From IMG/VR virus record IMGVR_UViG_3300026159_000398: DNA of 64,000 bases; one strand, written 5' to 3'. This stretch comes from a virus. Lineage: Duplodnaviria > Caudoviricetes. Position 1 is the first letter of the stretch. Every line of letters begins with the position of its first letter. The notes under the pieces were generated by a model. That model ran no database searches, was not told the origin of the DNA, and saw only the letters and a list, made by a program, of their open reading frames with translations. Position numbers and translations under genes: made by a program. Below are positions 31,139 through 46,828 of this stretch, piece by piece.

Positions 31139-31144
31139 AAAAAA

Positions 31145-31169
31145 CCTCTTAATAAATTATATTAAGAGG
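31145..31169 (-). promoter_or_regulatory. SD-sequestering hairpin with embedded AATATAATT promoter
   Basis: CCUCUUAAU-AUAAUUU-AUUAAGAGG. Confidence 0.75.
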
Positions 31170-31209
31170 CAGTTCAATTTTTGTTCAATATTTTTTATTG
31201 AACTCTGAT

Positions 31210-31283
31210 TATCCTCCGGCAGAGTCGAACTGCCATCACTGAGTTCGTAGCCCAGTACTCTAAATCCATTGAGCTAGGAGGAC
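31210..31283 (-). tRNA. tRNA-Arg(ACG)
   Basis: Cloverleaf, loop CU-ACG-AA. Confidence 0.9.
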
Positions 31284-31287
31284 GAAT

Positions 31288-31365
31288 TACCCTCAGAAGG
31301 ACTTGAACCTCCATGCATCCAATTAACCTTTCAACGCGTTCGTAGCGCGAGGGTATACGGAGAGA
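31288..31365 (-). ncRNA. Rearranged tRNA-like RNA with ACG anticodon-type loop
   Basis: T-arm GGAGG-UUCAAGU-CCUUC, CGCG-CUACGAA-CGCG arm, no canonical D-arm. Confidence 0.6.
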
Positions 31366-31369
31366 AATG

Positions 31370-31441
31370 TCCTGAGAGTCTGAGTTGAACAGACACCTGC
31401 TGGGCTTCAACTAACCGTGCGACCAAGTACACTATCTCAGG
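31370..31441 (-). tRNA. tRNA-Phe(GAA)
   Basis: Cloverleaf, loop UU-GAA-GC, one mismatch in anticodon stem. Confidence 0.8.
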
Positions 31442-32015
31442 TAAAATATAATTCTGGCAATTCTTGTTCAGTAACGACAAAAAAATTATCGCCATATTGT
31501 TTATTTGCGGCTTTTAATTTAGCCTGAATTTTTGATTCCTTTAATCTAAAATGAGGTTTTATTTCCACTATACTTTTTTCTCTTGGTAAATAAAAATCAG
31601 GATAGTAGTAATGTTCATTGCCTTCAAAAGTATATTTGACTCTAAATTTTTTATTATCTGCTCTTTCATAAGGAATTTTATATTCATCAAGAAGTTGCAT
31701 GAATTTGAGTTCAAATGAAGATTCATAAGGAATGCCATTATAAATTCCATTTATACTTTTTAATCTTTTATTGCTGGGTTCCCATCCGTCACGAATATGT
31801 TGTTTATGTTCTTCGGAAAGTTTCTTTCCTTTTCGAGAATTACTTATTTTAAGTTTTGTTTCTTGCGAAATTTTATATCCTTTAGAACGATTCTTTCCGA
31901 TGCATGACACACTTATTTTTAATTTTGTTTCTTGGGAAACTTTGTGTCCTTTGAGTGAATCGCTAATTTTTTGATTTCGTGCTGATGAATATTTGAAACC
32001 CTTTTTTCTTGACAT
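31437..32015 (-). CDS. NUMOD3 + PD-(D/E)xK homing endonuclease
   Basis: SQETKLKIS repeats; YYPDFYLPRE..VEIK. Confidence 0.85.
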   Translation of the reverse strand: MSRKKGFKYSSARNQKISDSLKGHKVSQETKLKISVSCIGKNRSKGYKISQETKLKISNSRKGKKLSEEHKQHIRDGWEPSNKRLKSINGIYNGIPYESSFELKFMQLLDEYKIPYERADNKKFRVKYTFEGNEHYYYPDFYLPREKSIVEIKPHFRLKESKIQAKLKAANKQYGDNFFVVTEQELPELYFT

Positions 32016-32016
32016 G

Positions 32017-32100
32017 ATAATTACCTCTACTATAATTATAAACGGAAGTTAGGCTGATTGAGTAGAGCAATCAGCCAAGGGAGCTACCCTCTTTCCTTCC
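32017..32100 (-). promoter_or_regulatory. Structured 5' leader (three-way junction + kissing loop on SD), copy 1
   Basis: GGAAG/CUUCC, AGGG-UAGCU-CCCU, 9-bp stem with loop CUCUACU complementary to SD loop AGUAGAG. Confidence 0.8.
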
Positions 32101-32123
32101 TGTATTTATAATTATATTACATG

Positions 32124-32405
32124 TCAAAGATTTTTTTGATATTGTTTTTTAAATTTTGTTAATTTCTTCCAGCTTTTTGTTGTATAACAACTGGGATATT
32201 TTTCAAGATTCCCCCACCTATTTAGATATGAAGGGCCTCTTCTTTTACGTAACAAAATTCCATCATCAATATCTTTTTGCCATCTGCATCTCTCTTGTTG
32301 AACTCTTTGACGACGATATCCAAGCCATCTGTGTTCAGCAAGCATCCACCATTTAGGGCAAGGATGTTCTTCATATCCCCACCACTTTGACCAATGATAG
32401 TACAT
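32124..32405 (-). CDS. Basic Trp-rich small protein
   Basis: AGGAGG SD; C-terminal KSWKK..KKQY. Confidence 0.65.
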   Translation of the reverse strand: MYYHWSKWWGYEEHPCPKWWMLAEHRWLGYRRQRVQQERCRWQKDIDDGILLRKRRGPSYLNRWGNLEKYPSCYTTKSWKKLTKFKKQYQKNL

Positions 32406-32683
32406 TATAACCTCCTAAGTTTTCACTTAAAAGTCATAAAGTACCTCCATAAAAAGTTTTTTCATAATAACATCCTTTTTGAATTTTAACATGAACAATG
32501 TTAATGTTCAGCTTTTATGTTAATGACACCATTGTTTGATGTTCACATGTATCTTCAGCATCTTTTTTGGTATTATTCAATTCACAAATTCCTGTAGTAC
32601 TTTGAAATTCTTGTAAGTCTTTTTCTGTATGTTTATAAAGACTTTCCCACTTTTGGCAATTTGCACAAATTTTTAATTGTCTG

Positions 32684-33355
32684 TCAATTGGTTTTCTCAT
32701 TGTTATTTTCCTCAAATTCTTTTTTTATTCTTATAATTTGTGTTCTACTAATTTTTAGATTTTCTGAAGCTCGTGATATCCAGCCGCGTTTATCATAATC
32801 ATATAATTTTATTTTTTTATATAATTCAGCACGTATTTGTTTGGCTTTTTCTGATGAATATGTTAAATTTAATTTTTTGAGACAACGAGTTATATGAACA
32901 ACACTGCAATTAAATTCTTTAGCTAATTCTTCTGTATTGATATTACTTTCAAATAATCTTTTTAATTTTTCAAAATCAATTTCTTTTTTATTCCATGCCT
33001 TTTGTGAATTTTTTGCGCCTTTATTCCATGGTGAACATCCCTTTCTGTTACCTGGAATTGTATGAATAAATCCGCCTTGACCACCTTCTAAAATATTGTA
33101 ACCATAAAGTCGATTATTACTTTGAAAAAACTTTATGCATTCTTTTTCAGCTTTATTAAGTAATTTTTCTGAATTACACCAACCTAGAATTATTTTTTCT
33201 AAATGAATAGAACCACGTTTTTGAATAACTTGACGAATTATTTTTCCTGAGCCAAAATAATTCTTTATACCTTTTAAACTTTGATTAGTTGTTTTACCAA
33301 CATAAACTTTTTTTGTAAAATGATCTTTAATGAGATAAATGTAGCCGTATGACAT
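32684..33355 (-). CDS. GIY-YIG homing endonuclease
   Basis: MSYGYIY..VYVGK..YFGSG..GYN; start reassigned to 33355 from SD position. Confidence 0.88.
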   Translation of the reverse strand: MSYGYIYLIKDHFTKKVYVGKTTNQSLKGIKNYFGSGKIIRQVIQKRGSIHLEKIILGWCNSEKLLNKAEKECIKFFQSNNRLYGYNILEGGQGGFIHTIPGNRKGCSPWNKGAKNSQKAWNKKEIDFEKLKRLFESNINTEELAKEFNCSVVHITRCLKKLNLTYSSEKAKQIRAELYKKIKLYDYDKRGWISRASENLKISRTQIIRIKKEFEENNNEKTN

Positions 33356-33356
33356 G

Positions 33357-33442
33357 ATAATTAGCCTCAACATAATTATAAATATAGAAGTGAGACCAGT
33401 AAGTTGAGGTTACTGGTCAAGGGAGCTACCCTCTGTCCTTCT
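33357..33442 (-). promoter_or_regulatory. Structured 5' leader (three-way junction + kissing loop on SD), copy 2
   Basis: AGAAG/CUUCU, AGGG-UAGCU-CCCU, 9-bp stem with loop CCUCAAC complementary to SD loop GUUGAGG. Confidence 0.8.
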
Positions 33443-33488
33443 GATATTATAATTATATTACATCATCGACTAAATTCTTCTCTCATTT

Positions 33489-33965
33489 TTACTGGACGAG
33501 TGAATCCGCGGCGTGCGTCGCTGCCCAGCTATCATGCTTGATTTTGTATTCGAAGCCCATTGCTTCCACCCATCCAATAGCTTCTTTAGCAATAGAGTTG
33601 GATTTGTGTTCAGGGTTTGGGTTGATGTCCAAGTGAACTTGGAATCCACGAGTTCCAACAAGATCAAGTAGCTTTGTAGAAGCATCAACCACAAGTTCAA
33701 CTTCCTTCATCAAGCGTTCACGCATACTTCTGATGCGAGCGGTTTTTGAAACTTCCACAAACATGTGGCCGCCTTTTGAACTTTCAATGTGAACGATGAT
33801 AGCAAGACCAAAACTTGTATAAGCTTTGTGGTTCTGGCTGTCAACTCCAACATAGATTGTGCTGGTTTGAGGAGTATTTTTGATGTACTCTTTCAAATCA
33901 TCCCAATCAATAGCTTGTGTGATTCTTCTTTCCCCTTCTTTTAGATCGCTCTTGAACTTTTTCAT
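33489..33965 (-). CDS. RNase H-like protein (YkuK/DUF458 type)
   Basis: IYVGVDSQ, LMKEV, VHLDIN and AATHAAD. Confidence 0.85.
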   Translation of the reverse strand: MKKFKSDLKEGERRITQAIDWDDLKEYIKNTPQTSTIYVGVDSQNHKAYTSFGLAIIVHIESSKGGHMFVEVSKTARIRSMRERLMKEVELVVDASTKLLDLVGTRGFQVHLDINPNPEHKSNSIAKEAIGWVEAMGFEYKIKHDSWAATHAADSLVQ

Positions 33966-34480
33966 ACGAACGTCATCTCCATCTTACCCAGAACTTTTAT
34001 TTGAGATGGTTCTATCATGGCTGAAAAACAGCCACTCTGATAAAAATCAGCAGTGTCGCCGTTCTTATCATAGGAACCGTCTTTTTTCAGACGTTTTACG
34101 AAAACATGATGGCCATCAGGATAAACGTCATTGTGTGCTTTTCCACCGCCATCCATTTTCGTCTTTATAACTACAAACTTTCCACCTTTGAGACAAAACT
34201 TTTCATAGGAAAGTTGTTGCTTGCTTAATTGTGTTTTTACAAAGTTGATTATTACTTTATTATCGACTTTCGCTCCAACTCTTTTAAAGGCGTTGCGAAC
34301 TTCATTGGCAATGTCATGATAATCTGTATCAATTATCGGGTCATATTTTTCATCAATAGTTACTTCATGATGGCATTTATCATTTGAGAATGCCATGTTC
34401 TGATAAACATATCGTTCAGGAACATCGGTATAAACGCAATGACCTTTTCTCAGTTCAACAACATCACCAACTTTCAGCAT
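33962..34480 (-). CDS. Hypothetical protein
   Basis: Operonic ORF with SD. Confidence 0.65.
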   Translation of the reverse strand: MLKVGDVVELRKGHCVYTDVPERYVYQNMAFSNDKCHHEVTIDEKYDPIIDTDYHDIANEVRNAFKRVGAKVDNKVIINFVKTQLSKQQLSYEKFCLKGGKFVVIKTKMDGGGKAHNDVYPDGHHVFVKRLKKDGSYDKNGDTADFYQSGCFSAMIEPSQIKVLGKMEMTFV

Positions 34481-35027
34481 GACTCACTCCTTTTCATCTA
34501 AATGTCTTTCAATGTATGCCTTATCCTGTTGAACTTTGTATGTGTCAAGTTCTCTAGACATCATTTTCAGAAGTTCTTTTTCAAGATCGCAGCTCATGGT
34601 TTTTAATTCTTCAGCTGCTTCAACTGTCCATTTGCATTTAAATGGTTTATTGTGATAAATTTTACGAATCTTCCACCAATTACGCCATCCAACTTTCTTG
34701 AACGCTTGGCGAACTGGAACATTCATTACAATTCTGGTGGTTGGTATTTTTCCAAGCTCACCAAAATCTATTACGTCTCCTTTCCAATGAATGGTAATTC
34801 TCATTACCACCCTCTTTCGTTGTTTGTTGTAATTTCTATGACAGCGAAAACTGCCATCAATAATCCTAAGAGACCTAAAAAGAAAATAATCGAGAAAAAC
34901 AACCAATCTTTAGTGATAATTTTATTTCCAGCTTCTTTAATCATGTGCCACAAAAATGCGACACCACATCCACCAAAAAATAACCATCCTAAAACAAAGG
35001 CTAAAACAATTTCCATACTCTCTCCAT

Positions 35028-35108
35028 TAGGGATACCCAGACTCGAACTGGGACGCCATTAGGCACAGGGTTTGAGCCTGCTGAGTAGACCAATTCCTCT
35101 ATATCCCC
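35028..35108 (-). tRNA. tRNA-Leu(CAA)
   Basis: Cloverleaf with variable arm. Confidence 0.9.
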
Positions 35109-35362
35109 GTATTTTTATTTATTTATTGCAAGGCAGATTTTCTTGAATTCTGCATCGCATGCTTTCATTGATGTTTCTTCGTCTTCTTCTACACCAAAAT
35201 CCCAGGTGTATTCATTGCCATTACGCATAGTGAATTCAATGGAACACAAATCATCTGTTTTATGAAATGATTCAATGTCATAAGTACGTATAACATCATT
35301 TTGAGGATGACCATCTTTACTCTTGCATATCAGAAAATCCATAACTCTCTCCTTTTGTTTTG

Positions 35363-35436
35363 TGCATCCCGTGAGATTTGAACTCACCACTTTCCCGTTA
35401 TGAGCGGGGTACTCTAACCAACTGAGTTAGGGATGC
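35363..35436 (-). tRNA. tRNA-Met/Ile2(CAU)
   Basis: Loop CU-CAU-AA, G1:C72 paired. Confidence 0.88.
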
Positions 35437-35852
35437 TTATTTCACTTCTTTGGCGTTTCTCAATCTCATTATCAATTCTTCAATTTTGACTCGTTTGAAT
35501 GGAAAAAATAATGAGTGCTTCGCTCTATCAAGAGCAGTTTTCAGAAGTTCAATTTCTTCTTCAGTGAGAATGTCGATCATGTAACGTCTTTGACGGTAAT
35601 TTCTCATACGCTCTCCTTTGGATATTTTATTGAAATAGATTTTATGATTATTTCTTTTGGTTCTAAAATCATTAAGTCACCAAAAACCACACCAAAATTT
35701 TCTAGACTTGCATTTCCATTTCTTCGCATAACATCAGTAATGAAGGCTTCAGCTTGTTCTACCATTTCAAAACCTTTCATGCCGTGCTCGAATTCGGTAT
35801 CGTAAAATACCCAGACTTTTCGTTTCATTTCCATAACTCACTCCTTTAAATG

Positions 35853-35924
35853 TCCGCTCGACAGGAATCGAACCTATTTCTCCGGTTTATCAGACCGGTG
35901 CTTCGCCATTTAAGCTACGAGCGG
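35853..35924 (-). tRNA. tRNA-Ile(GAU)
   Basis: Loop CU-GAU-AA. Confidence 0.9.
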
Positions 35925-35930
35925 GTGATG

Positions 35931-36004
35931 CAGAAGTGACTGGATTCGAACCAGTATCTTTCGATTTTGGAGATCGATATTTTGGCCAGTTAAACTACAC
36001 TTCT
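35931..36004 (-). tRNA. tRNA-Trp(CCA)
   Basis: Loop CU-CCA-AA, G73. Confidence 0.92.
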
Positions 36005-36048
36005 AAATGTCTTCTTATTGAATTATATTATAATTATTTATACTTTAT

Positions 36049-36717
36049 TTAGATTTTTAATAATTCTGGTAATTCTTTTTCAGTTATAAGTAAAAATTTA
36101 TTTCCAAATTGTTGTTTGGCTGCTTTTAATTTTGCTTTTGTTTTTAAATCTTTTAAATAATATACTGATTTAATTTCAATAATAGAATCTTCTCTTGGTA
36201 AATAAAAATCAGGATAGTAGTAATGTTCTTGATTTTCAAAAATGTATTTTATTTTAAATTGATTCGCTCTTTCATAAGGAATTTTGTATTCGTCTAATAA
36301 CTTCATAAAATTAAGTTCATAAGATGATTGATAAAATATTCCATTATGAAAACCGTATTTTCCTTTTGCACGTTTATTGTTAGGTGTCCATGCTTCACTA
36401 ATATGTTTTTTATGTTCTTCAGAAAATGGTTTTTTGGGTTTACCTTTTCTTAAGATACTTTTTTGTTGATTGGCTTCTAAAGAGTGTTTGCAGCCTTTAG
36501 CATTTTTATTACCAATTTGTGCAAGAGACATTTTTTGTTTTGTGGTTTCAGAAAATGGTTTTCTTTTTTTCCCTATATTAGAAAGACTTATTTTTAATTT
36601 AGTTTCTTCTGAATGTGGAACTCCAGATTTGCCTTTTTTGGGTGATGGTTTACCTTTTTTAGCCTCACTCATTTTTCTTTTGGATTTTTCTGACATTTTA
36701 TATCCTTTATAGCTCAT
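36049..36717 (-). CDS. NUMOD3 + PD-(D/E)xK homing endonuclease
   Basis: HSEETKLKIS repeats; YYPDFYLPRE..IEIK. Confidence 0.85.
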   Translation of the reverse strand: MSYKGYKMSEKSKRKMSEAKKGKPSPKKGKSGVPHSEETKLKISLSNIGKKRKPFSETTKQKMSLAQIGNKNAKGCKHSLEANQQKSILRKGKPKKPFSEEHKKHISEAWTPNNKRAKGKYGFHNGIFYQSSYELNFMKLLDEYKIPYERANQFKIKYIFENQEHYYYPDFYLPREDSIIEIKSVYYLKDLKTKAKLKAAKQQFGNKFLLITEKELPELLKI

Positions 36718-36912
36718 AATTGTTTCCTTAGAGTATTGTAATTATTGCACCATAATTTTTAAAATGATCAATAATATTCTCAAAATGTTTGCCAAGAGTC
36801 CATTGAGCAATATCAGGTGCTCCAGTGATTATTGTATTTTCTTCCTTTAAAACGAAATATTTTCCATCTGGCATCTTCACTGAAAACAACCGCATACGCG
36901 CCTCCACGAATG

Positions 36913-36985
36913 GGAGAATATCGAGACTCGAACTCGAACTGCTAGGGTCACGACCTAGGGTGCTAACCATTACACCATACTCTCC
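36913..36985 (-). tRNA. tRNA-His(GUG), C33
   Basis: G-1:C73, loop UC-GUG-AC. Confidence 0.88.
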
Positions 36986-37042
36986 ATATGCAAGTCACGT
37001 AAAACGTGACAAGAACCATTTGTACACATGGTACATTGGATG

Positions 37043-37114
37043 TGGGCCCATAGAGAATCGAACTCTACTCAATCGGTTAAAAGCCGATTGCTTCGCCAAC
37101 AAAGCTTTGAGCCC
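37043..37114 (-). tRNA. tRNA-Lys(UUU)
   Basis: Loop CU-UUU-AA. Confidence 0.9.
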
Positions 37115-37190
37115 AAAATGATTTACTCTTTTTTTAGAGAGGCAGTTAATCTCATTCCTCTACACGATTAAAGCTAATGCGTACTATATG

Positions 37191-37277
37191 CGGATGACCA
37201 GAGATTCGAACTCTGAGAGCCTTTCGACCCGCTTGTTTTCAAGACAAGTCCCCGCACCCACTGGGGTCAAGCCATCC
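37191..37277 (-). tRNA. tRNA-Ser(UGA)
   Basis: Long variable arm, G73. Confidence 0.9.
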
Positions 37278-37422
37278 ATAAATACTGAGTGACCATAATA
37301 TAAAGGTTGTCTCGAGATCTCTTTATACCACACATTTTTACCCCAATGTGCCGGATATATCATCTTGATGGTCAAAATTTTTCTTGCGTCTAGTTCGGAA
37401 GAAAAATTTTCTTTACTCATTT

Positions 37423-37509
37423 CGGAGCCGAGAGGATTCGAACCTCTGTAGGAGTTACCCATACAACAGTTTAGCAAACTGTCCACTTACCTGGCTAGTG
37501 TACGACTCC
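37423..37509 (-). tRNA. tRNA-Ser(GCU)
   Basis: Long variable arm, G73. Confidence 0.9.
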
Positions 37510-37524
37510 ATTCACAACTTAAAA

Positions 37525-37656
37525 GAGAAAATATAAATGAGGGACCGATATAGATTATGTGTTTATATCTGGCAGGTTCACCCACAGGCATCTTATCTAC
37601 GAGCTATGTCTCTCACCAGCTGCCAACCTCTAACATAGATCACTTTACATTTTCTC
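37525..37656 (-). ncRNA. Rod-shaped structured RNA, possibly 6S-like
   Basis: GAGAAAAUGUAAA/UUUAUAUUUUCUC closing stem, central bubble, UGGCAG/CUGCCA stem. Confidence 0.45.
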
Positions 37657-37659
37657 ATG

Positions 37660-37733
37660 AGACGCGGATGGGACTCGAACCCACACAAAACAGTTTTGCA
37701 GACTGACCCATTATTCCATTCTGGTACCGCGTC
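37660..37733 (-). tRNA. tRNA-Cys(GCA)
   Basis: Loop CU-GCA-AA, U73. Confidence 0.9.
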
Positions 37734-39459
37734 ATGAATAATCTACTTCACTGAATTTGAATCCTTTGTTTTGAAATAGATCAATACAAATATCAACTAA
37801 TTCAGCATTATATTTTGTGCCTCTGCCATCGCGTAATTCTTGAATAGCAATATCAATTCCGAGAGCCGGACGATATGGTCTATGAGAAGCGATAGCTTCA
37901 ACAATATCTGCAATACAAATAATTTGTGCACCTAAAAGAATTTGATTTTCTTTTAATCCTTGTGGATATCCCGAGCCGTCTATTTTTTCATGGTGCTGAT
38001 AAATCATTTCAGCAATTGGCCAAGGAAAATCAATCTTCTTTAAAATATCATAACCATCTTTTGCGTGCATTTGAATCAATTGAAATTCAATGCTATTAAG
38101 AGATGATGGTTTTGCAAGCAATTCAGATGGAACTCCAAGTTTTCCAATATCATGAATACTGGCTGCGAGTTCTATTCCTTGAATATCTTCAAAATCAAGA
38201 CCTTTGGCTTTGGCTATCTCTTTCGCAAGTTCTGCAACTCGCAATTGATGGCCTGCAGTATAAGAGTCTCGAGTATCAACAACCAATCCAAGAGCTTGAA
38301 TAATACCACTCAACGTTCTTTGAAGTTTATATTCAGCTTCTTTTTTCGAAGTAACATCAATCGAAAAATTCAATGTTGCTGGCTTGCCTTTCCATTCAAC
38401 GCGTGAAGAAGTTATTTCAACCCATTTAATATTACCACGAGTATCTTGTACTCGAAAAGCGTAATTAGTTGGGACATCTTCTCCGTTTAATCTGCGTTGA
38501 TATCGATCAAAAACAAAACCTAAATCTTCTTTATAAATAACTTCAGATACTTTTTTATTGGCAATAATTTCTTCTGGCGGACATTCCATCAATTTTCCGA
38601 ATGCCGGATTTGCCAATGTAAAACCATCTTCTTGTGCAACAAAAATTGCTATTGGTGCGTCTTTAAAAAGTCGAACATAATCTTCTTCGGTCTTTTTCTT
38701 TTCTGTAATGTCAATACCAAACGACAACGTTCCAATAACTTTTTCAATAACCTTTACAAGAGTATTGCGCCAAAGAATGTATTTTTCTTGTCCGTCTTTG
38801 GTTAATATGGGATTTTCGAATTCGTATGGAATTCCCTTTTCTGTCAGTCTGTCAAACTGTTCCCATATTTCTGGATATTTTTCTCTCGGAACAAAAATTT
38901 CAAGAACTTTTTTATTCTTTACTTCATCAAACTTATACCCAGTAATTTCTTCAGCTGCTTTATTAAAAATAACGGCTCTTGCGTTATGATCAAGCATGAG
39001 AATCATTGTATTAGCGTGTTGAATTAAATCATCTGCAAATTCTTTTGCTAATCGCAGTTCTCTTTCTGTCTGCTTGGCGACTGTAACATCATGAATGATT
39101 CCTAACAAAAATTCTTCTTCAGCGATTTCAATTCGCGTCAAGAATATTTCTGTCTCAATCATCTTTCCTTCAAAATCAATACAAGTCCAATCATATTGTT
39201 GATTTTCAATTTGAGCAACTTGAATGATGCACTTACATTTATCTTCCGATAATTGTCCGTCTTTTTGATATTTTGGAGAAAGTTGTACAGGTGTTAAACC
39301 AATCAAATCCTCTCTTTGACATTTAAACATCTTTTCTGCTTGAGGATTGCAATCGACTATCATGTCACCCGCAAGAATTAAAATAGCGTTTGGTGTTTTA
39401 TCAAACAGCAAACGATATCGTTGCTCTGATTCGAGCAACTTCTTTTTCAGCTGTTCCAT
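37732..39459 (-). CDS. PAS-PAS-PAS / HD-GYP cyclic-dinucleotide phosphodiesterase
   Basis: Three PAS/PAC repeats (..HDVT, ..IDIT, ..IDVT); YTAGH, HDIGK, HHEKIDGSGYP and RPYRPA. Confidence 0.93.
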   Translation of the reverse strand: MEQLKKKLLESEQRYRLLFDKTPNAILILAGDMIVDCNPQAEKMFKCQREDLIGLTPVQLSPKYQKDGQLSEDKCKCIIQVAQIENQQYDWTCIDFEGKMIETEIFLTRIEIAEEEFLLGIIHDVTVAKQTERELRLAKEFADDLIQHANTMILMLDHNARAVIFNKAAEEITGYKFDEVKNKKVLEIFVPREKYPEIWEQFDRLTEKGIPYEFENPILTKDGQEKYILWRNTLVKVIEKVIGTLSFGIDITEKKKTEEDYVRLFKDAPIAIFVAQEDGFTLANPAFGKLMECPPEEIIANKKVSEVIYKEDLGFVFDRYQRRLNGEDVPTNYAFRVQDTRGNIKWVEITSSRVEWKGKPATLNFSIDVTSKKEAEYKLQRTLSGIIQALGLVVDTRDSYTAGHQLRVAELAKEIAKAKGLDFEDIQGIELAASIHDIGKLGVPSELLAKPSSLNSIEFQLIQMHAKDGYDILKKIDFPWPIAEMIYQHHEKIDGSGYPQGLKENQILLGAQIICIADIVEAIASHRPYRPALGIDIAIQELRDGRGTKYNAELVDICIDLFQNKGFKFSEVDYS

Positions 39460-39528
39460 TTATTTTCCCTTAATAAAAATTGGTGTCAATTATATATTAA
39501 GTCGAAATTTATAAATGGAACAGAAAAT

Positions 39529-39601
39529 TAGGGCTACGGAGGTTTGAACTCCGATCGTCAGGTTGAAAACCTGATGTCCTCACCAATTAAACGATAGCCC
39601 C
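39529..39601 (-). tRNA. tRNA-Glu(UUC)
   Basis: Loop UU-UUC-AA. Confidence 0.9.
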
Positions 39602-39603
39602 AT

Positions 39604-39707
39604 TGGCGGGGTCAGGAGTGTTTGAGCCTCCATCTCCTCTCACGGACGAGAGGTGTTTTAGTATGGCACGCTTGACATGCCAGGCCGGCCAATTAAACTA
39701 CAACCCC
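39604..39707 (-). ncRNA. tRNA-like RNA with hairpin inserted in D-loop, encoded CCA
   Basis: GGGGUUG/UGACCCC-GCCA, D-loop insert UGGCAUG-UCAAG-CGUGCCA, non-standard anticodon and T loops. Confidence 0.6.
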
Positions 39708-39712
39708 ATAAT

Positions 39713-39784
39713 TGGGGTGAATGGGAGGATTCCCTCCATTTCAGGACCCGCTGTCCTGTGTCCTAGGGTTAGACGACATTCACC
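39713..39784 (-). ncRNA. tRNA-His-like RNA with reduced T-loop, encoded CCA
   Basis: G-1:C73, CCA, loop CA-GCG-GG, T-loop GAAU, no D-loop GG. Confidence 0.6.
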
Positions 39785-39787
39785 ATG

Positions 39788-39860
39788 TCTACGACCTGGG
39801 AGTCGAACCCAGATTTTTCTCCACCCCAAATGGAGTACCATTCCGCTAGGCGAGTCGTAG
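39788..39860 (-). tRNA. tRNA-Pro(UGG)
   Basis: C1:G72, loop UU-UGG-GG. Confidence 0.88.
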
Positions 39861-39864
39861 TTAT

Positions 39865-39935
39865 TTGTCCCTAAAGGAATTGAACCTTTACTGTGGGGGC
39901 CAAAACCCCATGTCTTACCGTTAGACGAAGGGACA
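39865..39935 (-). tRNA. tRNA-Gln(UUG)
   Basis: U1:A72, loop UU-UUG-GC. Confidence 0.9.
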
Positions 39936-40026
39936 ATGTTTGATGAAGAGCGGTCCGGTTTGCTACTAGCTACCATACGGCAACCTTCAAATGCATCCTT
40001 TGGGGCCTTGATTATTCTTCATCGAT

Positions 40027-40106
40027 TAGCCCACCCCAGATTCGAACTGGGACGCCGAAGCACAGGGTCTAGACCTGCTAGATAGACCAGATTCTCTTAG
40101 TGGGCC
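40027..40106 (-). tRNA. tRNA-Leu(UAG), C33
   Basis: Variable arm, loop UC-UAG-AC. Confidence 0.85.
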
Positions 40107-40114
40107 GTAAAAAT

Positions 40115-40195
40115 TCGGGATACTCGGATTCGAACCGAGACGCAATTAAGCACTGGGTTTAAGCCAGCTGGATAGACCTATTCTCCTATACCCCG
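40115..40195 (-). tRNA. tRNA-Leu(UAA)
   Basis: Variable arm, loop CU-UAA-AC. Confidence 0.9.
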
Positions 40196-40199
40196 TAAT

Positions 40200-40275
40200 T
40201 CGTGATGAAGAGATTTGAACTCTTACTGAATACGCTCTCAACGTATTTCCTCTACCAAAATTGGGATACATCACG
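40200..40275 (-). tRNA. tRNA-Leu(GAG), short variable loop
   Basis: Loop UU-GAG-AG, ~5-nt variable region. Confidence 0.8.
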
Positions 40276-40358
40276 TTAATGCGACGCACTTTTGTTACTG
40301 TGATCAGCAGTTTTTTGTTTGTGCGCCTTATCGCTTTTACCGTGCGACAATTGCAATG

Positions 40359-40430
40359 TGGGTTGTCAAGGATTTGAACCTTGCCCTGCGATTTTACAGA
40401 CCGGCGTGCCACCAGCAACACTTACAACCC
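40359..40430 (-). tRNA. tRNA-Tyr(GUA), short variable loop
   Basis: Loop CU-GUA-AA, ~4-nt variable region. Confidence 0.8.
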
Positions 40431-40435
40431 AAATG

Positions 40436-40506
40436 AGCATTCGACCAGAATTGAACTGGCATCTCAGCGTTGGCAACACCGAATTCTACCATTAAACTAC
40501 GAATGC
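40436..40506 (-). tRNA. tRNA-Gly(GCC)
   Basis: Loop UU-GCC-AA, U73. Confidence 0.9.
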
Positions 40507-40510
40507 AAAA

Positions 40511-40634
40511 CGTACTGGCGATAGGAATCGAACCTATACCGTCATCTTTTAAGGGTGATAATCAATCTCTGTCCGTACCAGTTTGGTCTAATGTGTAGAA
40601 ATTGAGTTTTACGCTTTACCAAAAGCGCCAGTAC
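40511..40634 (-). ncRNA. tRNA-mimicking Y RNA (YrlA-like, ends in acceptor stem)
   Basis: GUACUGG/CCAGUAC acceptor, D-like arm, AUAGG-UUCGAUU-CCUAU T-arm; anticodon arm replaced by UAGACCA-AAC-UGGUACGG..GAUUAUC Ro-type helix. Confidence 0.78.
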
Positions 40635-40638
40635 TATG

Positions 40639-40710
40639 AGCGGGAAAAGGGATTCGAACCCTCAACGATCAGTTTGGAAAACTGAGCTTCTACCATTGAA
40701 TTATTCCCGC
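40639..40710 (-). tRNA. tRNA-Gly(UCC)
   Basis: Loop UU-UCC-AA, U73. Confidence 0.92.
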
Positions 40711-40715
40711 ATAAT

Positions 40716-40744
40716 AAAAATGCCCCTCTTTGTGGGAGGGGCAT
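40716..40744 (-). terminator. Attenuator terminator ahead of the tRNA array
   Basis: AUGCCCCUC-CCACAAA-GAGGGGCAU-UUUU. Confidence 0.85.
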
Positions 40745-40779
40745 CATTCCGATTTTAAAATTTAACACCAATTAAAACA

Positions 40780-40872
40780 TCACGGATGACATGCCCCAAC
40801 CTGTCCTGGGAGAATCTGACCTTCCAGACTTGAGGGTTGATAAAAACGTTTATGTAAGGAACATATCATCAT
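40780..40872 (-). CDS. Putative 30-aa leader peptide MMICSLHKRFYQPSSLEGQILPGQVGACHP
   Basis: Between promoter (40888-40897) and terminator; AGGU SD; 3' end is the antiterminator strand. Confidence 0.7.
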   Translation of the reverse strand: MMICSLHKRFYQPSSLEGQILPGQVGACHP

Positions 40873-40926
40873 TTTGAATTACCTATAGAATTATATTATT
40901 GCACTTTGAAATTTATTTATAAAAAT

Positions 40927-41202
40927 TTACGCTACTTCTAAAAATTGTGCGTCCTCTCTGTCTTTTTGTTTTAACTCGGCATTTGAAAGAGGACGCTTAC
41001 CAAATGCTCTTGTTTTACATGATTCACATCCACAAGATAATGGGTGGTGTTTTTTGTAATGACCTTTAAAATCTGCAAGAAACTTTTCGCCGTTAAGCGT
41101 GTTAAATTTTTCTGGCATCTTGATTTCGTCTTTCATTACATGATAACGTTTTTCGGTGATGCGTTTATTCTGGTGTCTTTTGTACGCTATTCCACGTCCC
41201 AT
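40927..41202 (-). CDS. Basic small protein with CxCxxC
   Basis: GAGG SD; SCGCESCK. Confidence 0.65.
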   Translation of the reverse strand: MGRGIAYKRHQNKRITEKRYHVMKDEIKMPEKFNTLNGEKFLADFKGHYKKHHPLSCGCESCKTRAFGKRPLSNAELKQKDREDAQFLEVA

Positions 41203-41405
41203 AAGACCTCACAAATAATTTTTGTAAAAGCTAATATAGCCTAAAGTCACTCCCCAATAATATCCAGTATTTTGTTGCTCAACTTCATCAACACATCTAA
41301 TGAATCTGAATTGAGGTAAATAGAGAATATTTGGTTTTTCAAAAATTTGTTCTATTTCAATGGTATATCGTTTTTTAAAAATATCTTTTGAATACATACT
41401 CATTC

Positions 41406-41645
41406 CTATTTTTTATTCAAGACTCTATACCACGAAAGTCTTCCATTTGAACCACAACTATGATAAATTACAGTGTCTTTGCAAACAATATAATAATGAT
41501 TGTATTCACCTTTAATGTCCAAGCCCCATATTTCGCATTCAGGAAACATAGTCTTTAGTATTTTGACATTTTTATCCCATTGTGGTTTGTCATTACCGCA
41601 AGCCAAAAACATCAGAAACACAAGACATAAAAATATTTTTTTCAT
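41406..41645 (-). CDS. Putative lipoprotein
   Basis: MKKIFLCLVFLMFLAC. Confidence 0.6.
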   Translation of the reverse strand: MKKIFLCLVFLMFLACGNDKPQWDKNVKILKTMFPECEIWGLDIKGEYNHYYIVCKDTVIYHSCGSNGRLSWYRVLNKK

Positions 41646-41814
41646 TTTTCACTCCTTCCATCATTTGCTCTCAATAATTCAAGCTCCTCAAGAAGAGGTT
41701 TAATGTCTTGAAATTTTACCAGAGTATTGTCGTCATCTGGTTTTGCCTTAAATAAAGCTACATCAGGATTCCAATAATATTGGGGCACTTGTATCATCAC
41801 TCACTCCTTTAATG

Positions 41815-41888
41815 TCGGGGCGAAAGGATTTGAACCTTCGACCACATGTTCCCAAAACACGTGCGCTACCAGACTGCGCTACGCCCCG
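41815..41888 (-). tRNA. tRNA-Pro(UGG)
   Basis: CGGGGCG acceptor, loop UU-UGG-GA. Confidence 0.92.
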
Positions 41889-42813
41889 AAAATGACCAAT
41901 GCAATTAAAGCCAATGCTGCTAAGATATACAAAAATAAAATGAATTTTATTTCCATTTCTTTTCGTGCAATTCGACACTCCAACCACTCTGCTATCTGAT
42001 GAAACGCCGATTCTTCTGGCTCTTCATGAATTGGTATTCTTGCTACTTTTTTAGTAGGCACTTTAGTTAGAGCTACCTTTAAAAAGTATTCCGCAAAGCC
42101 AACTGAGAAGAACCGCATGCCACCATCCGATTTCGCCGATGATGAATCCTTTAACTACTATGCCAGGAAGAACAAAAGGCACTACATACGGCCATATCAG
42201 CCATACAAGCGTTCCAGCAAAAACCGCTACAATGAAAAGAAGCACTAATGCTACAACGGCCGCTCCTACACCAGCAATAAGCTTGGCAATAAAATCACTC
42301 ATTCGCATACTCCTTAAATTTATTTACAACTCTTAAAGCATTCAAGTTGTTGTTGCTGTATTTCAATAGTCGAATTCTTTACTGAATTATTGCAAAATTG
42401 GACAATATTAGCCAGTAATAGCACACTCACAACAACCAATAAAATTCGTTTCATTTTATATTTCCTTTTCAAAAAGTTGCTTTAGAATTGGACTTTGCCA
42501 ACCAAAAAGTTTCACATGACGATTGATACAATAAAGAGTTACTTTTTTCCAACCTTCAAGTTCATTGTCTTCAAGATCATGCCACATAAGAAGTGGTCGT
42601 AAGACTTGAACGAGCGTAAATGTCCGTTTGCCGTAATATGAGTCTTCAGTTTTCTGTGTGATTTTGGTTACTTTTCCAAAATTCATCCACAATGAACTTC
42701 CAGTACGGCCAGGATATGTGATGACATCTCCGACTTTTACGTCATTGCCACAACAATCTTTATAACTTTCGAGTTGAACAATAATGTCCTCTTTCATACT
42801 CACTCCTTTAATG

Positions 42814-42885
42814 TAGAGTCGGAGAGACTTGAACTCTCATCCTACTGCTTGTAGGGCAGCCGCTCCGCCATTGAGCTACGACTCT
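42814..42885 (-). tRNA. tRNA-Val(UAC), C33
   Basis: Loop CC-UAC-AA. Confidence 0.88.
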
Positions 42886-42919
42886 GTGTGGCCGTTAGTT
42901 GACGGCCAGTTTACAATAA

Positions 42920-43225
42920 TTATTTTACGAGTTTTTTTCTCTGCTTGTCAGTCAGAACTTTATCCATTGCTTTAACTTGTTTTTCAAGATCAGCAATTTC
43001 GACTTTCAAACCTTTCATTGCAGCTTGTTTTTCTTCAAGCTGAACTTTGACGCTTTCTGTTTTCTTCATTTGAATTTTGCATCCAGTGACTCCACCGAAT
43101 GTCATGCCAGCGAAAAATATCAGAGCAGCGAGAGCGCCGTAAATGACAACCTTACCAATCTTCGTTGCTTTGAAAGCTACGAATTTGGCTTTTGCGGCCG
43201 CAAAAAATGCTTTAACTTTTTCCAT
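42920..43225 (-). CDS. Membrane-anchored coiled-coil protein
   Basis: One TM helix then coiled coil; AGGAG SD. Confidence 0.65.
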   Translation of the reverse strand: MEKVKAFFAAAKAKFVAFKATKIGKVVIYGALAALIFFAGMTFGGVTGCKIQMKKTESVKVQLEEKQAAMKGLKVEIADLEKQVKAMDKVLTDKQRKKLVK

Positions 43226-43251
43226 TGTTCACTCCTTGTTTTTTTAAACTG

Positions 43252-43326
43252 CGGGGCATACGGGACTCGAACCCGTGATGATTCCTCCGTGACAGGGAGG
43301 TGGCATTGCCGCTAGCCCAATACCCC
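43252..43326 (-). tRNA. tRNA-Asp(GUC)
   Basis: Loop CU-GUC-AC, G73. Confidence 0.9.
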
Positions 43327-43989
43327 AAATTGTTCGTAATATCGAATAGTATTTTCGAACCAAACTTCTAATTTATATCCTAAACTTTTTACAGCATTCC
43401 ATTTTAAAATATCATTGTCTTTTTCGTATCCTTTAACTTCAATGTAATAAAAAGTATCATCGTGATTTATTACTTTAAAATCTAAAAGATATGAGTGGTC
43501 TTTTTTGTCTTTTCCAATATATGTGAATCTGTCTTTGGTATATTCCCAGTCTTTAATTAAATTATTATTTTTCCAATAATCAAGAATTTTACAAGTTCTT
43601 AATTCATAAGTTCCTTGAACTTTAATACCGTTGTAGTCATACCATTTGGTAGTTCCGCCTGCTACAAAATTATTTCCATCTTTATAAGCTTTTTTGTTGA
43701 TTGTGCTCCAATTTGGAGGTTGAATTTTTTGTTTTAAAATAGCTAATTTGATATTGACTTTTCTTGCGCATTCTTTTGAACAGTATTTTTGGTTTTTGGT
43801 TTTTGGAATAAAAGATTTTCCACAAACACAAATTTTTGGCTCTCTAATAATTTTTAATTTTTTGCTGACTTTTCTATTGATTTGTTCTCTGTTTTCTTTT
43901 GTACTAAATCCTCTAGCACATTTTGAAGAACAAAATCTTCCAGAGCCGTATGAACCATTATGTTCATTGCCACAATTTTCACATTTCAT
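43312..43989 (-). CDS. Zn-finger + PD-(D/E)xK homing endonuclease
   Basis: CENCG..FCSSKC repeats; YLLDF..YIEVKG. Confidence 0.8.
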   Translation of the reverse strand: MKCENCGNEHNGSYGSGRFCSSKCARGFSTKENREQINRKVSKKLKIIREPKICVCGKSFIPKTKNQKYCSKECARKVNIKLAILKQKIQPPNWSTINKKAYKDGNNFVAGGTTKWYDYNGIKVQGTYELRTCKILDYWKNNNLIKDWEYTKDRFTYIGKDKKDHSYLLDFKVINHDDTFYYIEVKGYEKDNDILKWNAVKSLGYKLEVWFENTIRYYEQFGVLG

Positions 43990-44030
43990 ATTCGAACCTC
44001 TATATTTAATTATATTACAAGAGTTCGAAT
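43990..44030 (-). promoter_or_regulatory. SD-sequestering hairpin with embedded promoter
   Basis: AUUCGAACUCU..AAUAUAAUU..AGAGGUUCGAAU-AUG. Confidence 0.75.
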
Positions 44031-44049
44031 AAAATTATTAAAATAAATG

Positions 44050-44123
44050 CGGGGAAGGTGAGAGTCGAACTCACAACCCAACGGTTAACGGCCGTTTGCT
44101 CTAGCCATTAGAGCTACATCCCC
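44050..44123 (-). tRNA. tRNA-Asn(GUU), C33
   Basis: Loop CC-GUU-AA, G73. Confidence 0.88.
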
Positions 44124-44280
44124 GAAGTCTCCGTTTAATTCGCCAAACGGATAAAATGCGATGAGCAGCCATTTTGATTAGTAAGGAGTTGGACTTATGT
44201 GCACACATTACCAACCCAGTCTAATCAAGTCCCTTTGCAGAACGGGCTTGGACTAGTATGTCACCGTTCTTTTACTCATG

Positions 44281-44353
44281 TGGAGCCGGGGAGATTCGAA
44301 CTCCCGACCTAGTGCTTGCAGGGCACCCGCTCTCCCAACTGAGCTACGACCCC
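44281..44353 (-). tRNA. tRNA-Ala(UGC), C33
   Basis: G3:U70, loop CC-UGC-AA. Confidence 0.9.
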
Positions 44354-44543
44354 AAATACCAGAAGTGTGGGCTAAACACACTTCTGAACAATAAAGAATT
44401 TTCCGGTTTCTCTATTGGATTGGATTTTATTTAACAGTAAAAACCCTTGTCTAAAAACTGCGGCATCCTACTCGGTACCGACGAGTTCCTTCGCTATAAC
44501 CCTCCAAGGACTGAGGGACCGAGAACTTAGCCCGTTCTCAAAT

Positions 44544-44614
44544 TGGCGGGAATGGGAGTCGAACCCATCTGGCGAGGTTATGAGCCTCGAAACTCGCCGC
44601 TAGTCTATCCCGCT
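44544..44614 (-). tRNA. Initiator-type tRNA-Met(CAU)
   Basis: A1xC72 mismatch, loop CU-CAU-AA. Confidence 0.82.
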
Positions 44615-45486
44615 ATGTAGTTGCTGCCATTTCATGTTCAAGAAGAATTTTCTTCTTTTCGAAATACCAGTCAATTAACTTCTTTAAAAAATATATCAAC
44701 ACCGTTGAAACTGCGGCCAATGCAATATCCAAAACCACATTTCCAACTTCAAACGACAAACCTTCTTTTGTAACTTTGACAGTTGTCTTAACTTGCTTCG
44801 TTACTTTTTTCGCAGGTATGACAACTTTCTTTTCAACTAATTCTTCTTTATAAGAAGGAACTTCTCTTTCTTCATAACTATCAGAATGATAATCAGGTCT
44901 TGCAGCATAAGAATAAGTGTCTAATTTTTTTCTTTTTGCCGCCAGGTCTTGCATGAAAACTTTCTGCTTCGTATGGAACAATTTTACGTTCTAAAACCGT
45001 TACTTGTTTGGCTGGAATTATTTCTTCCTTTTTGACCATTACGGTTTTATCAACTAATGGCTTGAATAATTTATCATGATTGAGAAATATGATAGTTGAC
45101 GTCAAGCCAATTACAATTGCTATTGAAATGACTAAAGTTAGTTTGTGCTTTTGGTTTATGTTCATTGCAATTTTTGCATGGTTGCCATATCCGTCAGCGC
45201 AAATTCTTTCTTCAGTCCGAAAGCTCCATTAGACTTTTTTTCGTACCACATATACAGTACGTTTTTGACTTTGGCTTCGACTCTGTTTCCACCACTTTTC
45301 TTTGCTTCTGTTGGATTTTTTCCCATGCTTTCTCTTCCTGTTTTTCTTTAATTCCTAACGCAAACACACTCGGAAGAAGCAATAATCCAACTAATGCAAC
45401 AAAGCCAAAAATCAACATGAACAAATTTTTAGCAAATGATTCATTACTTCCTGGTCCTACCATCATTCACTCTCTTTTCTTTTATG

Positions 45487-45560
45487 AGCCAGGAAGAGGA
45501 ATCGAACCTCCGACATCCTCATTACAAGTGAGGCGCTCTAGCCGTCTGAGCTACCCTGGC
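45487..45560 (-). tRNA. tRNA-Thr(UGU)
   Basis: Loop CU-UGU-AA. Confidence 0.92.
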
Positions 45561-45561
45561 A

Positions 45562-45990
45562 TTATTGATACTTATACTTTTTACGATACTCTCGCTTACT
45601 CTTTTTATTTTTTGATTTATATGTTGGCAATTGACTATCACAATTACTGCATATCAATCTCAAATTACTAAATTTCCAATTTAAAGAATTACCATCAATA
45701 TGATCAAGAATTTTGACTAACGGTTTACCTTGCCAATTTTCTAGACCACAAATTTCACATTTATCTCCACGCTTTTCAGTTAAATAATCTTTGAGAACTT
45801 TTACATTAGTATATGGACCATTCTTTCCAGCTATACTCGGTGCTGTTTGATGTTTCTCATAATAAGCAACAAGTTCTTCACACATTTGTTTGTGTTGAAA
45901 AGCCTTTTGGCATTTATTATCACAATACGTTCCTGTACTTCTGCCATTGGCTCGTATTATTTTTTTGCCACAATTCTTACATACGTTCAT
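45562..45990 (-). CDS. HNH homing endonuclease
   Basis: CEICG..LDHIDGN..N...NLRLICSNCD; start reassigned to ATG at 45990. Confidence 0.88.
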   Translation of the reverse strand: MNVCKNCGKKIIRANGRSTGTYCDNKCQKAFQHKQMCEELVAYYEKHQTAPSIAGKNGPYTNVKVLKDYLTEKRGDKCEICGLENWQGKPLVKILDHIDGNSLNWKFSNLRLICSNCDSQLPTYKSKNKKSKREYRKKYKYQ

Positions 45991-46027
45991 GGTAGACCTC
46001 ATTATTAAATTATATTAAGGTCTACCA
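45990..46027 (-). promoter_or_regulatory. SD/start-sequestering hairpin with embedded promoter
   Basis: UGGUAGACCU-UAAUAUAAUUUAAUAAUG-AGGUCUACCA(UG). Confidence 0.78.
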
Positions 46028-46267
46028 AGAAAAAATATCGCTTTTTTCTACATCAACGCAATTCCGATCATCGACAGAATTATTACTATGAGGCCAATAA
46101 TCGAAATGAATTTAATATTCATATCCTCCCAGTTCTTAAGAGCACTGACGAGAAACTTTACGGCACCTAATGCTAACAAAGCTTCGATTATTAGAGTGGC
46201 TATCATTGTAATTTCGTTGTCCTTTTAATAATTATATTACGCGACGATCAAAAAAGTTTATTTTTTT

Positions 46268-46828
46268 TCACTTATCCAGCTTAAATTCGCGCTTTACCGT
46301 GCCAACAGGAACATAAAAGAAGCGCTTGACTTCATGGGCGCCCGGATTACATATAACTTTGTAACCAAAGATTTTTGTATCATAGTACTCTTGAACACGA
46401 AGCAAATAAGGCTTTGCAATTTCTTGCCTCGATTTTTCTACTATTGACACATTCTCATTGAAGTCTGCCTCATACCTCTTAAGTGCATAATCATTTATCA
46501 TATCATCATGGTACTTAATATAGTACGCTATGATAGTTTTGGTGCCGCTTTCACCACTGCCTGTTCCAAGAAAAAGATAGAATTGTCCGAATGTCGTATC
46601 TTTGTCTCGAAGCACTTCAAGCGGAAAATATTTCTTTTCATACTTGAGATTTTTATCTCGATGAAGATCAGCACAGGCTCCAATGCAACCACCAATAAAA
46701 ATCAAAGATGAACATATTATTGCCGTGCCAGTTTTATCAAAATCGAAATAATCATGCACAACCAATCCTACTACAACTAAAACAACTACTATGCCAGCTA
46801 CGATAAATCCTAAAAGTGCTATTTCCAT
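46268..46828 (-). CDS. Membrane protein
   Basis: Two N-terminal TM helices; GQFYLFLGTGSG. Confidence 0.65.
   Translation of the reverse strand: MEIALLGFIVAGIVVVLVVVGLVVHDYFDFDKTGTAIICSSLIFIGGCIGACADLHRDKNLKYEKKYFPLEVLRDKDTTFGQFYLFLGTGSGESGTKTIIAYYIKYHDDMINDYALKRYEADFNENVSIVEKSRQEIAKPYLLRVQEYYDTKIFGYKVICNPGAHEVKRFFYVPVGTVKREFKLDK

Follow-up and report, generated by a model that had tools for sequence, protein, structure and literature searches.

Why phages carry large sets of transfer RNA (tRNA) genes, and how such sets are controlled, is an old question. Recent sources put forward two current ideas, codon compensation and a resupply of tRNAs that host defences have destroyed (PMC10264068, PMC11555353, PMC11464382). 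The 64,000-nucleotide stretch analysed here (IMG/VR record IMGVR_UViG_3300026159_000398, called the window throughout) comes from an uncultured phage with a T4-like large terminase, about 27% identical to that of the nearest phage records, and holds 27 tRNA genes together with a transfer-messenger RNA (tmRNA) and a Ro60 homologue. Directly ahead of its main tRNA array, on the minus strand, lies a compact leader cassette in which a promoter, a 30-codon open reading frame (ORF) and a strong terminator precede the first tRNA gene. What could such a terminator be doing in front of tRNA genes? A first-pass annotation had proposed that the leader is an attenuator whose codons mirror the downstream tRNA set. 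We find this interpretation partly supported overall, and consider it probable, at roughly 60%, that the cassette is a ribosome-mediated leader-peptide transcription attenuator gating read-through into tRNA-Gly and the array behind it. The evidence for this reading is all computational.

The leader cassette and its alternative helices

The promoter, the 30-codon ORF, the terminator and tRNA-Gly follow one another on the minus strand in the order first annotated, each at the position given for it. The features of the locus are as follows.

41202-40927, minus strand: 91-codon gene upstream of the leader, ending just ahead of the cassette
40914..40921, minus strand: TATAAATA box upstream of the -10 box, a look-alike of T4-type late promoters by direct reading, with a presumed promoter function
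40888..40900, minus strand: promoter core 13-mer AATAATATAATTC from the promoter scan, with the -10 TATAAT at 40895-40890, kept in all relatives
40881..40884, minus strand: weak Shine-Dalgarno-like AGGU, 8 nucleotides (nt) ahead of the ATG
40780..40872, minus strand: leader ORF of 30 codons plus TGA (MMICSLHKRFYQPSSLEGQILPGQVGACHP), covering 18/20 downstream tRNAs
40858..40872, minus strand: region 1, the start-codon segment AUGAUGAUAUGUUCC, anti-antiterminator strand, pairing with region 2 over 13 base pairs (bp)
40783..40797, minus strand: region 2, the last five codons GGGGCAUGUCAUCCG, partner of either region 1 or region 3
40738..40751, minus strand: region 3, CGGAAUGAUGCCCC, the antiterminator 3' strand from folding, overlapping the terminator 5' strand
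40711..40745, minus strand: intrinsic terminator with a 10-bp G+C-rich stem, a 7-nt loop and a U tract, about -17 kcal/mol
40638..40710, minus strand: tRNA-Gly(UCC), found by ARAGORN and Rfam, the first gene past the terminator and directly abutting its U-rich tail
31144..40710, minus strand: presumed regulated unit of 20 tRNA genes and interspersed genes, ending in a terminator at 31170-31144

The stem strands of the leader terminator (GAUGCCCCUC/GAGGGGCAUU) occupy 40745..40719 and are followed by the U-rich tail UUUAUUAU at 40718-40711. It is the strongest terminator-like site within 30.5-46.5 kb. The region contains only one other strong minus-strand terminator, the site at 31170-31144 that closes the array past tRNA-Arg. 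An A/U-rich spacer of 28 nt separates the ORF from the terminator, and there is no space for a promoter between the terminator and tRNA-Gly(UCC). The interval between the upstream gene and the leader holds no terminator, so transcripts from upstream should end at the leader terminator too.

Transcription is predicted to start near 40884. The 13-mer promoter motif belongs to a family that is over-represented in the window: it has 18 matches where 7.2 are expected, and none of 100 shuffles reaches 18. Members of the same family also precede tRNA-Trp (36020-36032) and the Ro60 gene (25711-25723). The TATAAATA sequence, which we take to be the T4 late-promoter consensus, lies about 20 nt upstream of the -10 TATAAT. 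The putative ribosome-binding site of the ORF is weak: the duplex of AGGU with the anti-Shine-Dalgarno sequence has an energy of -3.8 kcal/mol, compared with a median of -5.9 for long ORFs, 31% of which are equally weak or weaker. GAGGTAA-type sites are common ahead of this phage's genes.

The leader RNA can form three mutually competing helices with the classical 1:2 / 2:3 / 3:4 layout, in which 2:3 is the antiterminator and 3:4 the terminator. Their energies are -25.4 kcal/mol for 1:2 (inner stems included), -19.3 for 2:3 as a hairpin and -17.0 for 3:4, an order also seen in classical attenuators; as a duplex, the antiterminator reaches -17.4 kcal/mol. The earlier claim of a pairing between the last codons of the ORF and the terminator 5' strand holds. 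Region 2 is the best upstream partner of this strand and beats 99% of dinucleotide shuffles (P = 0.01; 20 of 2000 shuffles of the upstream part were as good). The third helix, between regions 1 and 2, had been overlooked and appears in both the minimum-free-energy and the consensus folds.

The minimum-energy fold changes with transcript growth. Helix 1:2 forms once region 2 is out, 2:3 replaces it once region 3 is out, and 1:2 returns together with the terminator when the RNA is complete. In these foldings, the antiterminator results when region 1 is made unavailable and the terminator when region 2 is, a two-state logic reproduced by only 4% of shuffles. We also folded the RNA around a stalled ribosome with a 28-nt footprint. 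In nascent RNA that lacks region 4, the antiterminator forms for A-site stalls at codons 2-22 and is lost from codon 23 on. This agrees with the proposal that a ribosome near the stop codon would mask the antiterminator: in the footprint folding, an A site at codon 23 or later is predicted to preclude it.

Codon content of the leader ORF

The 20 tRNA genes past the terminator are, in order, Gly, Gly, Tyr, 3 Leu, Gln, Pro, Glu, Cys, 2 Ser, Lys, His, Trp, Ile, a CAU anticodon, Leu, Phe and Arg. The 80-nt tRNA at 40027-40106 (minus strand) was called 'Pyl (cta)' by ARAGORN. Its anticodon loop reads UCUAGAC, which identifies it by sequence as tRNA-Leu(UAG) with C in place of U at position 33; the homologue in a related contig (L001, see below) is called Leu(tag).

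We measured coverage as the number of array anticodons with a cognate codon in the ORF under strict wobble rules. The ORF holds cognate codons for 18/20 of the tRNAs past the terminator, including all nine (9/9) of the first uninterrupted block, and for only 1/5 of the anticodons that occur upstream only. The two gaps are Trp-CCA and Leu-CAA, as the first-pass annotation had stated, and its codon list is likewise correct, with 21/22 of codons 3-24 distinct.

Coverage of at least 18 is rare under every null that we considered. It has P = 0.0044 among 450 short ORFs of the window, P = 0.0003 in draws from the phage codon usage and P = 0.0017 in random nucleotides of the leader's own composition, and was observed 0 times in 343 thirty-codon segments of long ORFs. 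Coverage of the full first block gave P values of 0.004-0.008 across all four nulls. The match is specific to the frame, since the other five frames of the same 90 nt give 9-13, and it is not a mere consequence of codon diversity: given 26 distinct codons, 18/20 has P = 0.003. The match between leader codons and array tRNAs is real, frame-specific and far above chance.

A stricter claim, that the ORF excludes Thr, Ala, Asn, Asp and Val, whose tRNAs lie only upstream of the promoter, stands in part. It is true of codons 3-24. It fails at codon 25 (GTT, Val) and codon 27 (GCA, Ala) and in two related leaders (L002 and L004, described below), which contain Asn, and about 1% of short ORFs hold a 22-codon stretch free of these five amino acids. 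The exact exclusion was overstated. Val25 and Ala27 belong to the antiterminator strand, and a ribosome stalled at either could not give read-through anyway. These two codons also raised the suspicion that the whole 'census' had been cherry-picked; the coverage statistics rule this out, and the exclusion claim taken alone remains weak.

The switch and the codon content suggest how the leader might operate. Transcription would begin near 40884, and a ribosome would load on the 30-codon ORF. If all codons were decoded fast, the ribosome would reach the last codons or the stop codon and cover region 2, the terminator 3:4 would form, and transcription would end 5 nt ahead of the first tRNA gene. 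If the ribosome were delayed earlier in the ORF, region 2 would be free as region 3 emerges, the 2:3 antiterminator would form, and the polymerase would enter the array. Without any translation of the leader, region 1 with its start codons would pair with region 2, again leading to termination. Because the ORF carries about one codon for each of 18/20 array tRNAs, it would report slow decoding by any of the covered tRNAs and so could provide feedback on the phage's own tRNA supply.

The cassette in relatives and in an unrelated phage

Relatives were found via nine clusters of the upstream 91-residue protein in a large protein database, from which contigs were retrieved. The cassette is present at 93-100% identity in six metagenomic contigs (L001, L002, L004, L005, L006 and L008). 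In all six the ORF is open and of equal length, with variation limited to codons 9-25 and 7/12 variable sites at third codon positions. The L002 leader has AGT in place of CGT at codon 9 (R9S), AAC in place of AGT at codon 15 (S15N) and CGT in place of CAG at codon 19 (Q19R); in L004, codon 9 becomes AAT (R9N) and codon 19 CGT (Q19R). The changes thus reposition the lone Arg and Ser(AGY) codons without losing them, and coverage stays at 18/20 in every haplotype. Simulated substitution sets retain this coverage in 2-5% of cases for L002 and 6-16% for L004, two lineages that are not independent. We considered an RNA pairing as the cause of the moved Arg codon, prompted by covariation of ORF nucleotides 25/57 (C-G to A-U), and rejected it because the flanking bases cannot pair.

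The cassette is kept while its surroundings change. The adjacent tRNA-Gly(UCC) is only 45-48% identical to window positions 40638-40710 in L001, L002 and L004, and in L002 and L004 identity falls to 62-83% over the 3' half of the upstream gene. In L008, the cassette stands behind another gene, yet still ahead of tRNA-Gly. The TATAAATA box is unchanged in every leader copy, including those with differing upstream flanks (L008 and the divergent L007 introduced below), a hint that two types of promoter may drive the leader. The box was also noted at L007 3076-3083 and in L008.

Several further observations concern this mosaic. The leader and a tRNA-like element that flank the replaced tRNA-Gly are 88-100% identical in L001, L002 and L004. 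The array as a whole appears as a mosaic swapped in small modules, with homing-endonuclease genes at varying sites (L003, L007, L008). The tRNA-like element itself (40510-40627, minus strand) spans 118 nt, with tRNA-Gly(UCC) on one side and tRNA-Gly(GCC) on the other. An acceptor stem and a T arm are present, the place of the anticodon arm being taken by a long insert, and part of the element scores 27.6 bits with the Rfam tRNA model, slightly below threshold. ARAGORN calls in relatives vary (Phe in L002, Leu in L006), and it is 90-97% conserved in L001, L002 and L004 despite the replaced neighbour.

A more divergent copy, in contig L007, is about 65% identical, the two leaders sharing 114 of about 174 transcribed positions. 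The L007 cassette follows a homologue of the gene found in L008 and has the same TATAAATA and TAATATAAT boxes. Its leader ORF has 28 codons (L007:3123-3206) and is followed by a different terminator, with tRNA-Tyr 16 nt past it. The leader peptides of L007 and the window give no BLASTP alignment, and neither matches any PHROG family. All four strands of the switch differ in sequence while the layout is the same, region 1 containing the start codon and region 2 the stop codon. As in the window, no upstream segment of L007 pairs better with the terminator 5' strand than region 2 (P = 0.0065), and the stepwise folds run from 1:2 to 2:3 to 1:2 plus terminator. Between the two terminators, 4/10 pairs are changed on both sides with pairing kept; this comparison uses separate folds because the MAFFT alignment set the 3' strands out of register. 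Conservation of the overlap between ORF and antiterminator had been set beforehand as a refutation test for the attenuator idea. The overlap is kept in the relatives, including L007 with its rebuilt strands. The unrelated peptide within a conserved layout argues that the peptide itself is probably not functional. The L007 codons include Asn, Thr, Asp and Trp; Leu, Ile, Phe, Cys, Val and Ala are absent. Little sequence is left in the contig past tRNA-Tyr, and none extending it was found.

Wider searches returned no further close copies. In INPHARED, blastn gave tRNA-level matches only and tblastn of the neighbouring gene gave none. Peptide and DNA scans of IMG/VR and two JGI metagenome DNA scans found no close relative, a GTDB genome scan found two 20-mer matches attributable to chance with no wider similarity, and a search via the neighbouring HD-GYP gene found no further leader copy. 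One 265-nt contig from a digester metatranscriptome spans 40912-40716 plus 67 nt past the terminator, into the spacer type of the relatives, with DNA carry-over possible; its single variant, S14T, is too thin for use. A second RNA-library contig joins the upstream gene to the ORF. With depths of 2.5-3.8 and RNA not separable from DNA, we did not count these contigs as evidence for transcription or read-through.

The pattern of a short leader ORF with the codons of the tRNA block behind it also occurs in an unrelated phage, the Caulobacter phage phiCbK (JX100813). Its gp083, a 45-codon ORF, and an annotated terminator precede Pro, Pro, Lys, Lys, Leu, Leu, Leu, Ser and Ser tRNA genes. All anticodons are covered (9/9), and 21/45 codons are readable by the block (null mean 9.2; P < 5e-5). 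A 32-codon ORF that is not annotated, again with a terminator, precedes Phe, Val, Ile, Ile, Val, Gln, Gln and Gly, with 7/7 distinct anticodons covered. Cross-controls were negative, as the leaders cover 1/7 and 3/9 of each other's blocks. We also noted a third cassette at 48055-48178, with TTGACA and a 20-codon ORF (MTHLLTRYEREATGLDTTTA) ending in an annotated terminator, followed by tRNA-Glu and tRNA-Asp; the ORF holds GAA, GAG and GAT codons, a match too small for a test.

Like the window, the phiCbK cassettes combine promoter, mini-ORF, terminator and tRNA block, the ORF being enriched in codons of its own block, although they are annotated merely as a hypothetical protein (gp083) and as 'predicted terminators'. 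Unlike the window, phiCbK has a GC-rich genome, infects an unrelated host and uses several block-specific leaders of 2-4 amino acids each in place of a single near-complete sampler. The likeness described here covers promoter, ORF, terminator and codon content.

Weighing the explanations

The leader thus presents a promoter with a short ORF, an intrinsic terminator, an antiterminator, an anti-antiterminator, codons matching the genes behind it and a layout kept in relatives. Classical counterparts are the amino-acid leader attenuators such as ilvGMEDA (Ile/Leu/Val codons), thr (Thr/Ile), trpL, hisL, leuL and pheL. Like the window cassette, these enterobacterial leaders have a promoter, a short translated leader (translation being predicted for the window), helices 1:2/2:3/3:4 and an intrinsic terminator. 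In them the position of the ribosome sets antiterminator against terminator and more than one kind of codon can be sensed, as we propose likewise for the window; a model of the attenuation mechanism is given in PMC1183508. The window cassette differs in that the genes behind it are tRNA genes rather than biosynthetic enzymes, in sampling about 20 different single codons for 16 amino acids rather than runs of 1-3 amino acids, and in placing the start codon inside helix 1:2, with the ORF extending from region 1 into region 2. A scan of 30000-47000 against Rfam (E <= 1) returned tRNAs and chance matches only, with none in the leader and neither a T-box (RF00230) nor an amino-acid operon leader among them. 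The window leader shows no similarity in sequence to the enterobacterial leaders; it would work like the amino-acid operon leaders of Rfam without being a member by descent.

Several observations weigh against the attenuator reading. The weak Shine-Dalgarno sequence would fall at the extreme 5' end of the predicted transcript, and the start codons are buried within helix 1:2. When the full-length RNA is folded to equilibrium with the footprint, the terminator is blocked by stalls at codons 2-8 only. The stall window thus differs with and without region 4 (codons 2-22 versus 2-8), which makes the extent of the ORF that would be sensed a kinetic question. Promoter-like motifs lie inside the array, as the first-pass annotation had cautioned and as both our promoter scan and our motif count found, so that the dependence of distal tRNAs on the leader is only presumed and these tRNAs may escape its control. 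The leader also appears dispensable, since the related lineage L003 is without it and has tRNA-Gly 7 nt past the preceding gene. Among the near-identical copies, RNAalifold found no compensatory pairs, because the stems do not vary, and structural support from compensatory change comes from one divergent lineage, L007. Finally, a suggested check, whether leader codons follow small differences between arrays, came out negative: the first block of L002 is without tRNA-Leu(GAG), while its leader keeps the CUY codon. The L002 and L004 leaders have moreover gained Asn codons, and the window's tRNA-Asn lies upstream.

We consider it unlikely that the cassette is instead a stand-alone unit, producing a small RNA of about 170 nt that possibly codes for a 30-residue peptide, with constitutive terminator leakage supplying the tRNAs and the codon match a coincidence. 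Phage T4 has stable small RNAs, species 1 and 2, in its tRNA gene cluster, and a small RNA here would resemble them. Like the leader, they are non-tRNA transcripts among the tRNA genes of a T4-like lineage, a likeness by description only, and we know of no ORF, terminator switch or codon match in them. The promoter and terminator do bound a compact, highly conserved unit, and the substitutions in close relatives (the third-position sites and the relocated Arg codon) would fit selection on a peptide. Functions of their own are described for an attenuator RNA and its leader peptide, rnTrpL and peTrpL, in PMC6614838 and PMC7968998. The peptide, however, is not conserved between the two homologous cassette types and has no PHROG match, and the three-helix switch, kept with compensatory changes, would be superfluous for a simple RNA plus terminator. 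The codon coverage (P about 0.001) and its frame specificity would be unexplained, and tRNA-Gly would be left without another promoter.

The bistable RNA layout is real and conserved, and this would equally suit a switch set by something other than a ribosome, such as an antitermination protein of phage or host, a small RNA or direct tRNA binding, with the ORF arising as a by-product of helix 1:2. The weak Shine-Dalgarno sequence is in keeping with this, as is the fact that a 30-codon open frame is not rare (about 13%, our own estimate from stop-codon frequency). We nevertheless find it improbable. The ORF spans exactly region 1 to region 2 in both cassette types despite their differing sequences, the coverage of downstream tRNAs by its codons would have no explanation, and no Rfam family, T-box included, matches the region. 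T-box riboswitches bind one uncharged tRNA via a specifier codon and the T-box bulge, without translation, and control synthetase and amino-acid genes, mainly in Firmicutes. They share with the leader a choice between terminator and antiterminator that reports the state of tRNA, but the window leader has an ORF and is without the specifier-loop architecture.

In an ordinary module boundary, the terminator would close the upstream operon, the promoter would be incidental, the cassette would be conserved as a recombination joint, and the pairings and codon match would be due to chance. This would fit a strongly mosaic region, in which identity to relatives ranges from 45% to 100% between neighbouring segments, and the lack of a terminator after the upstream gene. 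We find it very unlikely. Chance would have to account for the antiterminators of both cassette types (P = 0.01 and P = 0.0065) together with the codon coverage (about 0.001), the layout survives about 35% sequence divergence, and a promoter directly before a terminator with tRNAs behind it makes little sense unless the terminator is regulated. Each of these three explanations leaves the codon match or the conserved switch unexplained.

If the leader is an attenuator, what would it sense? The first-pass annotation saw a broad sensor of host tRNA destruction, in which stalling at any depleted or cleaved tRNA would turn on the replacement set. In a counter-defence role of this kind, the leader would gauge the tRNA pool, and the triggers would be anticodon nucleases (such as PrrC, PARIS-type or retron effectors) or host shut-off. 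Were the same logic present in unrelated phages such as phiCbK, this would represent a widespread and undescribed viral means of measuring and repairing the host translation apparatus. We regard this purpose as doubtful. A response to host tRNA damage is possible and is not needed: feedback on the phage's tRNA supply is more economical and explains the data equally well.

A full-text search, with most subscription journals outside it, found no paper on leader-peptide attenuation of tRNA genes. Were the attenuator reading true, a device responding to how fast the array's own codons are decoded would amount to a built-in gauge of tRNA supply. Leader-peptide attenuation, so far described for amino-acid and related operons, would then have tRNA genes among its targets, and predictions could be made from sequence alone, for example of which tRNAs lie behind an L007-type leader. 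The cassette would also be a compact natural part for synthetic circuits that sense a cell's translational state.

Some minor observations concern the neighbourhood and origin of the phage. Within the tRNA array, 37732-39459 (minus strand) encodes a 575-residue protein with PAS domains and an HD-GYP-type HD domain. Its phage relatives are 77-99% identical, and its nearest cellular homologues, 30-41% identical over most of their length, include proteins of Smithella and Syntrophaceae metagenome-assembled genomes, which gives a weak hint at host or habitat. Of sampled words from 40400-41300, 22-44% are present in runs labelled as wastewater or sludge metagenomes; these are word matches without alignment and serve as a habitat hint only. 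Lastly, the tmRNA (22209-22555, minus strand; tag GAKQLNAEEQLAA) and the Ro60/TROVE protein with its vWA domain (23708-25324, minus strand) lie about 15 kb from the tRNA array.

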